Assembly (NCBI GenBank): GCA_900322215.1 | Contig: ONYW01000003.1 | Span: 9,199 to 73,198, forward strand | Direction of reading: 5' to 3' | Source of the DNA: an uncultured Eubacteriales bacterium | Lineage (GTDB): Bacteria > Bacillota > Clostridia > Christensenellales > CAG-917 | Length of the DNA stretch: 64,000 nucleotides | Part shown: in pieces, positions 49,033 through 50,378 of the stretch | How the letters are laid out: each line of letters starts with the position of its first letter | Numbering within the stretch: position 1 is the first letter of the stretch | Notes under the pieces: generated by a model | Database searches by the model: none | What the model was told of the DNA's origin: nothing | Seen by the model: only the letters and a program-made list of their open reading frames with translations | Program-made: the position numbers and the translations under genes

Positions 49033-50313
49033 TTATATCCTCCTCTCCATCGGTTCGATCATGCGATTCGGATCTTTGAGTTCCGTCGCGGGCTTTAGTG
49101 TCGCCCCCTTGTTTTCCGCCGTAGGGTCGTCCACGTCAACGGATATGCGCGCACCCTTTTGTTTTTGAATACCTTTCATATACGCGCGCTCTGACACAAA
49201 TCCGCGATACAAAAGCTGTTGCTCTATCTTCATCTCGGAGATTTCGTATCTCTTTGCGGACGCAAGTCCATACAGCATAAGGAATCTCTTTATATAAAAA
49301 CTCTTTTTGTCGCGTTCGGCTTTTTTCTTCGCAATAGCGAGAATGCTGTCCGCTTCTTCCTTTTCGAGGTCTTGAAGGTCGTGCTCTTTGAGATACGCCC
49401 TTCTGTCCTTGAGCGCGTCCGCTTCAAAGAGTTCGGGCACGCGGGAGAAATCGCCTTTTGCAAGTTGTTCCTTGCGCTTGTCAAAATAATATTCGCTTAT
49501 GACGCCCGCTCTGAACGCTTCATAAACGGCGTTCTTTCTTGCCGCGATGCCGAGAGCGAGGTCTTTCTTTGCGCGTTCTCTCTGATATTCGCACTCGCTA
49601 CGGTATTCGCCCTTTGCCTTTTGCGCGCTCTTGTCCCACTTGTCGATGAGCCTTTTGAGCCTTATCGCCTCTTTGTTGAACGCCTCGTCAGCCTTTTTTA
49701 TGTCGCTTTTATGCACGACGTCCTGCTTGTGAAGGAACTCGTTGTAGTCCAAGTCGAGAGAGGAGAGATCCTTTTCAAACGCAACCGCGTCAAACGCGCT
49801 TTCGTCTCTTCCCATTTCAACAAGCGTGGCATGTACGAAAGAGCGAGGCTCTTTTGCAAACCATTGCGCGGTACCGCCCGCGTCGTCGCCGGTGAGCAAC
49901 ATGACTTGCGCCCCGAGCCTGTGCAACATATTGAGCGTTTTGACGGACAAAGCGTCGCTATAAAGGGCTCTGCGCTCGTCTTCCTCCACGCAAAACGAGA
50001 TCTCTTCGAGGTCGCCTATGCAATCCTTTGCGTTTTCGATAAATTGGCGGGTTGTAAGACTGTTTTTCAAGATAAATTCCATCTCGTCAAAAGGAACTTC
50101 TTCATCACTTTCAGTCTCAAGGTCAAAACCTTCCTGTTGATTTTGAGTAAGCAAAAGAGCGCACTCGAGCAAGCGGAGGTGGTCTGCCAGTTCCGCACGA
50201 GTAAGCGCTCTCTTTTGTGAAATATCGATGACGTCGACGGGTGCGCCAAAATAGGTTTGGCTCTCGTCAAACTTTTTTTGCAAGTGTTGATAAAGACTTT
50301 TCAAAGCACCCAT
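49033..50313 (-). CDS. Hypothetical protein homologous to the C-terminal half of the repeat unit of the 2881-aa protein
   Basis: Shares FDExxF/Y, G(V/R)(I/V)xxYxxxRxxQLxxG...LFEAD and F/YxxR(F/Y)xxxxGL motifs with the repeats. Start uncertain: the ORF opens at 50349; 50313 chosen for its GGAG RBS and the promoter position. Confidence 0.8.
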   Translation of the reverse strand: MGALKSLYQHLQKKFDESQTYFGAPVDVIDISQKRALTRAELADHLRLLECALLLTQNQQEGFDLETESDEEVPFDEMEFILKNSLTTRQFIENAKDCIGDLEEISFCVEEDERRALYSDALSVKTLNMLHRLGAQVMLLTGDDAGGTAQWFAKEPRSFVHATLVEMGRDESAFDAVAFEKDLSSLDLDYNEFLHKQDVVHKSDIKKADEAFNKEAIRLKRLIDKWDKSAQKAKGEYRSECEYQRERAKKDLALGIAARKNAVYEAFRAGVISEYYFDKRKEQLAKGDFSRVPELFEADALKDRRAYLKEHDLQDLEKEEADSILAIAKKKAERDKKSFYIKRFLMLYGLASAKRYEISEMKIEQQLLYRGFVSERAYMKGIQKQKGARISVDVDDPTAENKGATLKPATELKDPNRMIEPMERRI

Positions 50314-50344
50314 TTTTGCATAGTCTCCCATGATTTTCACATTC

Positions 50345-50378
50345 ATCATAGCACAGTAACTATTACAAATTTATGACA
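50345..50378 (-). promoter_or_regulatory. Promoter with tandem TGTCAT-N5-TGTAAT box and extended -10
   Basis: Minus strand TGTCATAAATTTGTAATA (50378-50361), 10 nt, TG-n-TATGAT (50350-50345). 16/18 identical to the box at 29323-29340. Confidence 0.7.

Follow-up and report, generated by a model that had tools for sequence, protein, structure and literature searches.

A stand-alone copy of a giant-protein module lies beside a response regulator gene in a type IV secretion locus of an uncultured rumen Clostridia-type bacterium

The stretch of DNA analysed here, called the window below, covers 64,000 nucleotides of contig ONYW01000003.1 (positions 9,199 to 73,198, forward strand) in assembly GCA_900322215.1, the genome of an uncultured Eubacteriales bacterium (CAG-917) comprising 1.59 Mb in 65 contigs, with 47.8% G+C and 94% completeness. 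It carries a locus resembling a type IV secretion system (T4SS), and our subject is one open reading frame (ORF) within it, at 49033-50349 on the minus strand, which we named X. Read along the minus strand, the genes are those for a LytS-type histidine kinase (HK), X, a response regulator (RR), a 1341-aa MBG lipoprotein, a VirD4-type coupling protein and a 4131-aa membrane-anchored surface protein, then a small pilin-like gene and those for a 291-aa protein, a VirB6-like protein, a VirB4-type ATPase and a giant protein of 2881 aa. X is the first gene of the operon X-RR-lipoprotein-VirD4-surface giant and encodes a cytoplasmic all-helical protein of about 426 aa. By sequence comparison it is a genuine stand-alone copy of the module, here called C, that closes every repeat unit of the giants. 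The gene, its parts and its promoter are as follows.

49033-50349, minus strand: ORF X as annotated, 438 aa
49033-50313, minus strand: X, probable true coding sequence, 426 aa, starting at M13
49261-50193, minus strand: C module of X, all-helical, residues 53-363, delimited by hhalign, a giants-only hidden Markov model (HMM) and AlphaFold2 (AF2)
49198-49254, minus strand: post-module motif KRYEISEMKIEQQLLYRGF, X residues 366-384
49036-49152, minus strand: disordered tail of X with the motifs ARISVDVDD and IEPMERRI, predicted local distance difference test (pLDDT) score below 50
50345-50379, minus strand: X-operon promoter, with the box TTGTCATA-AAT-TTGTAATA (50361-50379), 10 nt and an extended -10 element TGcTATGAT
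50438-50500, minus strand: two terminator-like hairpins between the kinase gene and X, seen in the sequence; the pair stands 3' of the kinase gene

Translation of X probably starts at M13, giving 426 aa, because several sequence features agree on that codon. The annotated ATG at 50349 falls inside the -10 hexamer TATGAT (50345-50350) of a conserved promoter, and the M13-equivalent start (MGAL/MGFL) was used by six of the seven other distinct X orthologs, P0007 having the same upstream extension as the window. In one related locus (L002) an in-frame TAA lies just upstream of the equivalent start, the M13 codon itself (ATG, 50313) has GGGAG ahead of it, and residues 1-10 were disordered in the AF2 model (pLDDT < 50).

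The giants against which X was compared are built of units joining an N domain to a C module.

15305-23950, minus strand: 2881-aa protein, three N-C units and an acidic tail (alignments, HMM)
21215-22285, 18353-19516 and 15308-16648, minus strand: C modules of the 2881-aa protein, the last including the acidic tail (profile)
C34:14740-20523 (L011), minus strand: giant of 1927 aa with two N-C units, in the same genome
C34:21018-27059 (L011), minus strand: giant of 2013 aa with two N-C units, in the same genome

The units of the 2881-aa protein are about 905-955 residues long and share 23-27% identity (pairwise E = 2e-38 to 2e-60). Both giants on contig C34, which are located away from the T4SS locus, were 33-34% identical to it and have the same acidic tail.

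A first-pass annotation of the window, made from the sequence alone, had proposed that X is a stand-alone, half-unit paralog of the giant repeat. The paralogy was borne out by BLASTP, hhalign and the giants-only HMM. BLASTP matched X to the 2881-aa protein with E = 8e-7 (X 267-362, giant 764-864), with weaker matches at the same relative position in units 2 and 3. The profile-profile alignment of X with the three units, a failure of which the annotation had named as refuting its proposal, was significant (hhalign, probability 94.4%, E = 9.5e-8) and paired X 53-363 with columns 574-889. A profile of ten giant modules, with X left out, retrieved X from 11,401 six-frame, stop-to-stop genome ORFs of at least 60 aa with E = 2.4e-22 over HMM positions 42-358, the next match having E > 4. 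MAFFT aligned every one of the four motif pairs that the annotation had quoted from X and the units, and the order of helices was collinear between the AF2 models of X (202-244, 248-280, 286-298, 330-359) and giant unit 3 (743-784, 792-821, 827-839, 874-899). Two of the proposed numbers needed correction. The shared part is not half a unit but its last 35-40% (about 310-390 of some 930-955 residues), and the giants-only HMM, run over all of these ORFs, found not four copies of the domain but eight: three in the 2881-aa protein, two in each of the C34 giants, and X.

The homology of X to the repeat units held overall, as the annotation had it, but the closeness was unequal. A profile of X orthologs matched the terminal modules of the two-unit giants best (E = 1e-14 to 1e-17), units 1 and 3 of the 2881-aa protein less well (about 1e-8) and unit 2 not significantly (E = 5). 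The alignment of X with terminal modules continued beyond the module into ISEMKIEQQLLYRG in X and MAERIAAEDARL in the giants, and then into the tail; the motif KRYEISEMKIEQQLLYRGF, kept in all X orthologs, including that of a genome lacking the T4SS, resembles a 'TMAERIAAEDARL' stretch in the terminal giant units. A tree built from 42 modules grouped the X orthologs in a single clade (support 100/99) on a long stem and placed other solo proteins in other clades. Deep nodes of this tree were not resolved, so that X as sister of the terminal modules was neither shown nor refuted by it, and we therefore call X terminal-like from HMM scores and motifs only.

Beyond the C modules, the X tail (GARISVDVDD ... 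IEPMERRI) was aligned by MAFFT, collinearly, with the acidic tails of the giants (IxIDLDDEP, seen as IHIDLDDEP, and GERFDLDLDD ... DPLKR). HMMs of the tails alone, run between X and the giants in both directions, were not significant (E > 50), and we therefore do not claim a shared C-terminal secretion signal. A strict tail pattern, chosen post hoc, matched only X, gA and gB among 2393 ORFs; a second post-hoc pattern matched gA, gB and one hydrophilic protein from contig C52. On these comparisons the tail likeness is suggestive only.

Neither X nor the giant units could be assigned to a family already described. X had no meaningful match in Pfam (chance level at E <= 1), NCBIfam or the sequences of the Protein Data Bank (PDB); the giant units had no Pfam family and no PDB-sequence relative, and an NCBIfam scan of unit 1 alone was empty. 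AF2, using a 17-row alignment for X, gave an entirely helical model (pLDDT 75.9, predicted template modelling score 0.69) in which residues 11-368 mostly reached 80-97, two long helices spanned 202-244 and 248-280, and the tail (369-438) was disordered. The model of giant unit 3 (pLDDT 81.5) showed the helix order of X in its last third. Foldseek found no match in the PDB for X (best E = 0.16) or unit 3 (best E = 0.12), with template modelling (TM) scores of at most 0.2, and the folds cannot be named because of this. By these searches the C module is a new protein family without a recognised fold relative.

A profile search of 1.84 billion representative proteins returned 103 at E <= 0.001. 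Their architectures included N-C singles of about 850-1060 aa, (N-C)2, (N-C)3, N-C-C and solo C proteins of about 400-560 aa, as well as C-only arrays (P0024, P0027, P0043) and a 4367-aa protein (P0016) in which three or four C modules come after (N-C)3. Because the module occurs solo and in C-only arrays, it behaves as an autonomous domain duplicating on its own. The first-pass annotation had proposed an HMM search for further carriers and their N-terminal cargo domains. Further carriers were found, but no varied cargo: in the 103 representatives the module was partnered by the same N domain or by more C, and by no Pfam-recognisable foreign domain (the Pfam scan covered the ten proteins with unassigned regions, of which two gave matches, both below cutoff). 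These two, P0110 and P0112, had sub-cutoff matches to PI3_PI4_kinase (both) and to MLD, a membrane localisation domain (P0110), and a marginal module match (E about 2e-4); they are probably unrelated effector-like proteins matched via helical segments, and they were not used. The family is sparse: the module turned up in two genomes among 151 from the order and in one among 399 sampled from the class, and a same-genus genome lacked it.

Among the distant carriers, an 849-aa gene beside P0046 (L015) was considered as a VirB4 and rejected, being another member of the (N-C)n family. It has the module motif FREGKITESYY, and contains four in-frame stops with translation table 11 and is open with table 4. 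The two family members there lie in tandem (L015:2738-5287 and 5611-8442), and the organism seems to read TGA as sense.

The strongest linkage of X, which the first-pass annotation had missed, is to the response regulator.

48236-49027, minus strand: RR with receiver domain and probable winged-helix output domain (Pfam Response_reg E = 2.8e-20)
50511-51821, minus strand: LytS-type histidine kinase (Pfam His_kinase and HATPase_c), with its own promoter-like site

A collection of 5.8 billion proteins yielded a handful of X orthologs, and further ones came from G061 (a genome of the same order), Logan contigs and two metagenome-assembled genomes (MAGs) titled 'uncultured Clostridia bacterium', the latter by X-only alignment. 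Runs with the X locus were mostly labelled bovine or sheep gut metagenomes. The RR gene lay directly 3' of X in every locus, which amounts to eight distinct orthologs at 42-100% identity (loci counted: the window, L001-L006, L012, L013, L017 and L020/L021). Across all of them the RR started 5 nt past the X stop or overlapped X by 1-20 nt; in the window the distance is 5 nt, with the AGGAGG of the RR within the last X codons. L002, L004 and L013, at 46-73% identity, have the larger order HK-X-RR-lipoprotein-VirD4-giant surface protein as well, and L020 shows HK-X-RR-lipoprotein up to the contig end.

Linkage of X to VirD4/VirB4, which the annotation had put forward for the family as a whole, was found in the window, L001/L002, L004 and L013, while the contigs of L012 and L020 end after the lipoprotein. 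This association therefore stood for the closest lineages, where the order is conserved down to 46% identity, but not for G061, which lacks the machine; the distant carriers L014, L023 and L015 showed no T4SS gene on their (short) contigs. Giants stood directly upstream of the kinase in L001/L002 (two, with two units each) and in L013 (one, with a single unit). A further operon, at L022:678-7589 in a more distant relative, consists of a box like that of X, two N-C proteins (1006 and 1024 aa) and an RR 56% identical to that of the window. The full-length unit in the position of X suggests that the copy nearest the RR lost its N domain and so gave rise to X. At L014:6130-7938 a solo C protein of 563 aa (P0050) is followed by a GGDEF gene, with an HK-RR pair 5 kb downstream whose RR is of the same type and 37% identical to the window RR.

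The promoter of X shares its box with one other promoter in the window.

29323-29341, minus strand: second box GTGTAATA-GAT-TTGTAATA, followed by N10 and TATAAT, ahead of the operon for pilin-like protein, lipoprotein, VirB6-like protein, VirB4 and giant

These were the only two sites for the strict box pattern in the 1.59-Mb genome. Degenerate boxes with equal spacing lie ahead of both C34 giants (upstream of 27059 and 20523), so that the box TTGTMATA-N3-TTGTAATA with N10 and a -10 element marks four promoters, those of X-RR, the pilin/VirB4 operon and the two C34 giants. Upstream of X the box with the extended -10 was conserved in seven lineages (L001/L002, L004, L012, L013, L017 in G061 and L020 among them). 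L001/L002 and L013 have it ahead of their giants too, and L022 ahead of its N-C operon. P0050 (L014), from another clade, has a different direct repeat at the same position, TGTTGCAC twice with an 11-bp period and then TATAAT. Regulators of the OmpR/PhoB type, with a winged helix, bind direct repeats of 11-bp period that replace the -35 element. By analogy we infer that the RR binds the direct-repeat box, keeping this to inference because its output domain matches Trans_reg_C weakly. The data place X in a regulon that the RR would control, with its gene fixed beside that of the RR.

The linkage between X and the RR persists in a genome without the machine. G061 belongs to the same order and a different family, and is 97% complete; no VirB4, VirD4, giant or second module copy was found in it.

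L017 (G061:C15) 9437-11533: box, X and RR of G061
L024 (G061:C36) 9969-12324: second perfect box of G061, ahead of a 624-aa membrane protein with two YjbR domains

G061 has the box, an intact X ortholog (P0117, 422 aa, 42% identity) and an overlapping RR gene and, at a distance of 3-5 kb, genes for a LytS-type kinase and an MBG-like lipoprotein. P0117 keeps the helical module and the ISEM...YRG motif, without the RISVDVDxP and IEPxERR tail motifs. Its sister ortholog P0035, in an HK-X-RR-lipoprotein locus, keeps RISVDFDEP and is without the IEPxERR ending. Since G061 retains box, X and RR without the machine, X therefore has a role independent of the machine.

Two further lines of evidence, from sequence comparison and assembled RNA reads, support X as a functional gene that is transcribed and under purifying selection. 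Its dN/dS against three orthologs was 0.17-0.28, and five of the six single-nucleotide polymorphisms between strains in X were synonymous. Three bovine rumen metatranscriptomes contained contigs that covered parts of X, RR and kinase at 97-99% identity with the window. Two RNA contigs spanned the X-RR junction (48738-49240 and 48954-49167), and none of the metatranscriptome contigs matching the window lay over 50207-50513.

The machine itself includes the following channel and coupling genes.

41674-44250, minus strand: VirD4-type coupling protein, CD1115 family (Pfam T4SS-DNA_transf E = 4e-49; NCBIfam NF045973, 294.6 bits, cutoff 250)
24001-26658, minus strand: VirB4-type ATPase, Mycoplasma-ICE type (NF045975 'VirB4_plasma', 568.9 bits, below the cutoff of 590)
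26680-28089, minus strand: VirB6-like protein, 469 aa (NF045848 and NF045889, Mollicute ICE models, above cutoff)

ICE denotes an integrative and conjugative element, and these Mollicute-ICE-like channel genes occur here in a Clostridia-type MAG with a standard genetic code. No relaxase, integrase or transposase was found among the window ORFs scanned, and no VirB1- or VirB8-like gene at the locus, whose flanks are housekeeping genes. A solitary tRNA-Ala(TGC) and tRNA-Ile(GAT) lie just past the locus, with an HTH-Fic family gene adjoining (window 53002-53189 and 53613-54536). Elsewhere in the genome, C52:50500-62500 holds a second, degenerate locus with paralogs of VirD4 and the MBG lipoprotein and without VirB4. 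Three hydrophilic proteins there have C-termini (YDLDLEHDDLNM, SYDDLDNEDLNM) like the ERFDLDLDDEAEELNNDIL tail of the giants.

The minimal machinery of Mycoplasma ICEs comprises a VirB4 (Mbov_0397 family), a VirB6-like protein (Mbov_0396 family) and TraG/VirD4 (PMC6030558; PMC12857230), and the apparatus is likewise without VirB1- and VirB8-like parts (PMC12857230, PMC6030558). The window channel genes match the Mollicute ICE models, with VirB4 just below its curated cutoff. Unlike a Mycoplasma ICE, however, the window locus is chromosomal, in a walled, rumen Clostridia-type genome, with no relaxase, transposase or integrase seen, and it has in addition the giant surface proteins, the (N-C)n family, X and a dedicated two-component system.

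We read X, tentatively and with less than even confidence, as a cargo-derived accessory of the two-component system that feeds the status of cargo or export back to the regulator. The winged-helix RR would bind the direct-repeat box. X, more speculatively, would bind the same partner as the terminal module of the giants, be it the coupling protein, the regulator or the kinase, and would report cargo load or export activity to the RR. The outcome would be feedback control of the whole regulon, of a sign that is speculative. Towards this reading, the data establish that X is homologous to the giants, that the genes keep their order, that the promoters have a box in common, and that X is transcribed and under selection.

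Several observations weigh against this accessory role. Any interaction of X is speculative, and the C-terminal domain of the RR matched Trans_reg_C only at E = 0.016. The X model matched no known regulator fold in the Foldseek search of the PDB. X keeps cargo-like traits, namely a terminal-type module and an acidic/basic tail, and the loss of both tail motifs in the T4SS-less genome fits a plain substrate as well. As L022 shows, adjacency to the RR is family-wide and may be historical rather than functional, and the G061 locus may be a decaying remnant. Transcription is support rather than proof, because assembled contigs may include DNA.

It is somewhat unlikely, in our view, that X is simply one of the cargo proteins of this T4SS-like machine, the shortest in its family. 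The coupling protein would then recognise the terminal module and/or the tail, and the neighbouring RR would be there by accident. Much of the evidence above can be read in this way: X had its highest profile scores with terminal modules and shares its type of promoter with the giants, the X tail aligns collinearly with the giant tails (ISVDVDDP with IHIDLDDEP, EPMERR with DPLKR), and the family has members with one, two, three or more units as well as C-only arrays. Both tail motifs were lost in the T4SS-less genome only, P0035 next to an MBG lipoprotein keeping RISVDFDEP, and a comparable motif, YDLDLEHDDLN, closes the hydrophilic C52 proteins encoded at the second VirD4 locus. The tail likeness is insignificant when taken alone, however, and the patterns were post hoc; X is intact with its RR in a genome without VirB4, VirD4 and giants; and the strict X-RR coupling and X's own promoter are left unexplained. 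Export of any family member is also putative, none has a signal peptide, and the system is without a relaxase. The related proposal of the first-pass annotation, that the module is a VirD4-recognition domain marking a family of substrates, is weakened on sequence grounds, because the module is internally repeated with uniform partner domains, and because X-RR survives without the machine and the distant short contigs show no T4SS genes. For X itself the annotation had suggested a substrate, a chaperone or a decoy, and X may be any of the three.

It is rather improbable that X acts as a chaperone or adaptor, packing its helices like with like against the homologous C modules so that the giants stay soluble or reach VirD4. 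The confidently folded helical module common to X and the giants would suit such a role, as would their co-expression from the same promoter type and the presence of X and VirD4 in one operon, but X persists in G061 without giants, no X-like gene stands beside the giants of C34, L001, L013 and L022, and X is far larger than typical secretion chaperones. Least probable by a long way is that X represents a giant-gene fragment in decay, or a frame open only for coupled translation of the RR. X is truncated and the ribosome-binding site of the RR lies within its last codons; against this, length and sequence were kept over eight orthologs down to 42% identity with no frameshifts seen among them, the low dN/dS extends along the whole X gene, and X has its own conserved promoter and a confident AF2 fold. 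We rejected the remnant reading on conservation and selection. We rank a two-component accessory above plain cargo, plain cargo above a chaperone or adaptor, and that above a remnant, the remaining probability falling to other roles.

Accessory proteins encoded within two-component operons include LiaF, YycH/YycI and VraT, and the Bacillus Rap proteins are helical and bind response regulators. X resembles the former as a third gene in or beside an HK-RR pair, co-transcribed with the RR, and Rap as a cytoplasmic, helical protein of about 400 aa, but it matches none of them in sequence or fold. In the case of Rap, Foldseek against the PDB returned only designed helical repeats and 14-3-3 (E >= 0.16, TM <= 0.2), and Pfam found no TPR. 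We know of no precedent among these proteins for an accessory derived from a repeat module of a giant protein.

Export of a regulator is coupled to transcription in flagella, where FlgM, secreted by the machine, acts on sigma-28. The ExsE-ExsC-ExsD-ExsA cascade of the P. aeruginosa type III secretion system likewise couples export to transcription through a secreted regulator (PMC7303211). The proposed logic is similar here, in that a small cargo-like protein in the regulated operon links the state of the machine to a regulator. The known cases are type III systems with anti-sigma or anti-activator cascades, whereas here the system is T4SS-like with an RR, there is no homology, and the export of X is putative. 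To our knowledge no FlgM/ExsE-like circuit has been described for any type IV system. By analogy X might be an exported cargo mimic, a secretion-coupled regulator of a Gram-positive, relaxase-less T4SS, which we think quite improbable. With the machine idle, X would hold the RR or the kinase in one state; once the coupling protein, engaging the terminal-type module and the tail, exported X, the regulon made up of channel, giants and X-RR would switch. Such an exported anti-regulator would combine the accessory and the plain-cargo readings.

For a VirD4-recognition domain as the first-pass annotation proposed it, the nearest functional parallel is the XVIPCD, a region of the X-Tfe effectors of the bacteria-killing T4SS of Xanthomonadales that binds the VirD4 all-alpha domain and is needed for translocation (PMC8740702). 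In both, a conserved region followed by a low-complexity tail is common to several proteins encoded with a VirB/VirD4-type system. The XVIPCD, however, is about 120 residues long, always C-terminal, and carried on varied toxin domains with immunity partners (PMC8740702), whereas the C module has about 310-390 residues, is all-helical and internally repeated, and has the same N domain or itself as partner. Unlike XVIPCD- or BID-type signals, it is thus no C-terminal tag on varied cargo, and X showed no likeness to the XVIPCD by Pfam, PDB sequence or fold (no fold match at E < 0.1).

The locus is a relaxase-less type IV secretion locus whose channel is of the Mycoplasma-ICE type, and its host is an uncultured rumen bacterium, Clostridia-type, with 1.6 Mb of genome. 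Judged from the sequence comparisons, the homology of X to the giants is solid and the regulatory wiring is new, and the function of X is putative. X, the RR and the box form a compact regulon of four promoters through which the machine is linked to giant helical proteins of a family without known relatives, and X is a practical experimental entry point because it is the smallest independently folding member of that family. Feedback of X on its regulator, if real, would couple a type IV machine with transcription in a new way; failing that, X would still be a minimal candidate cargo for translocation assays.

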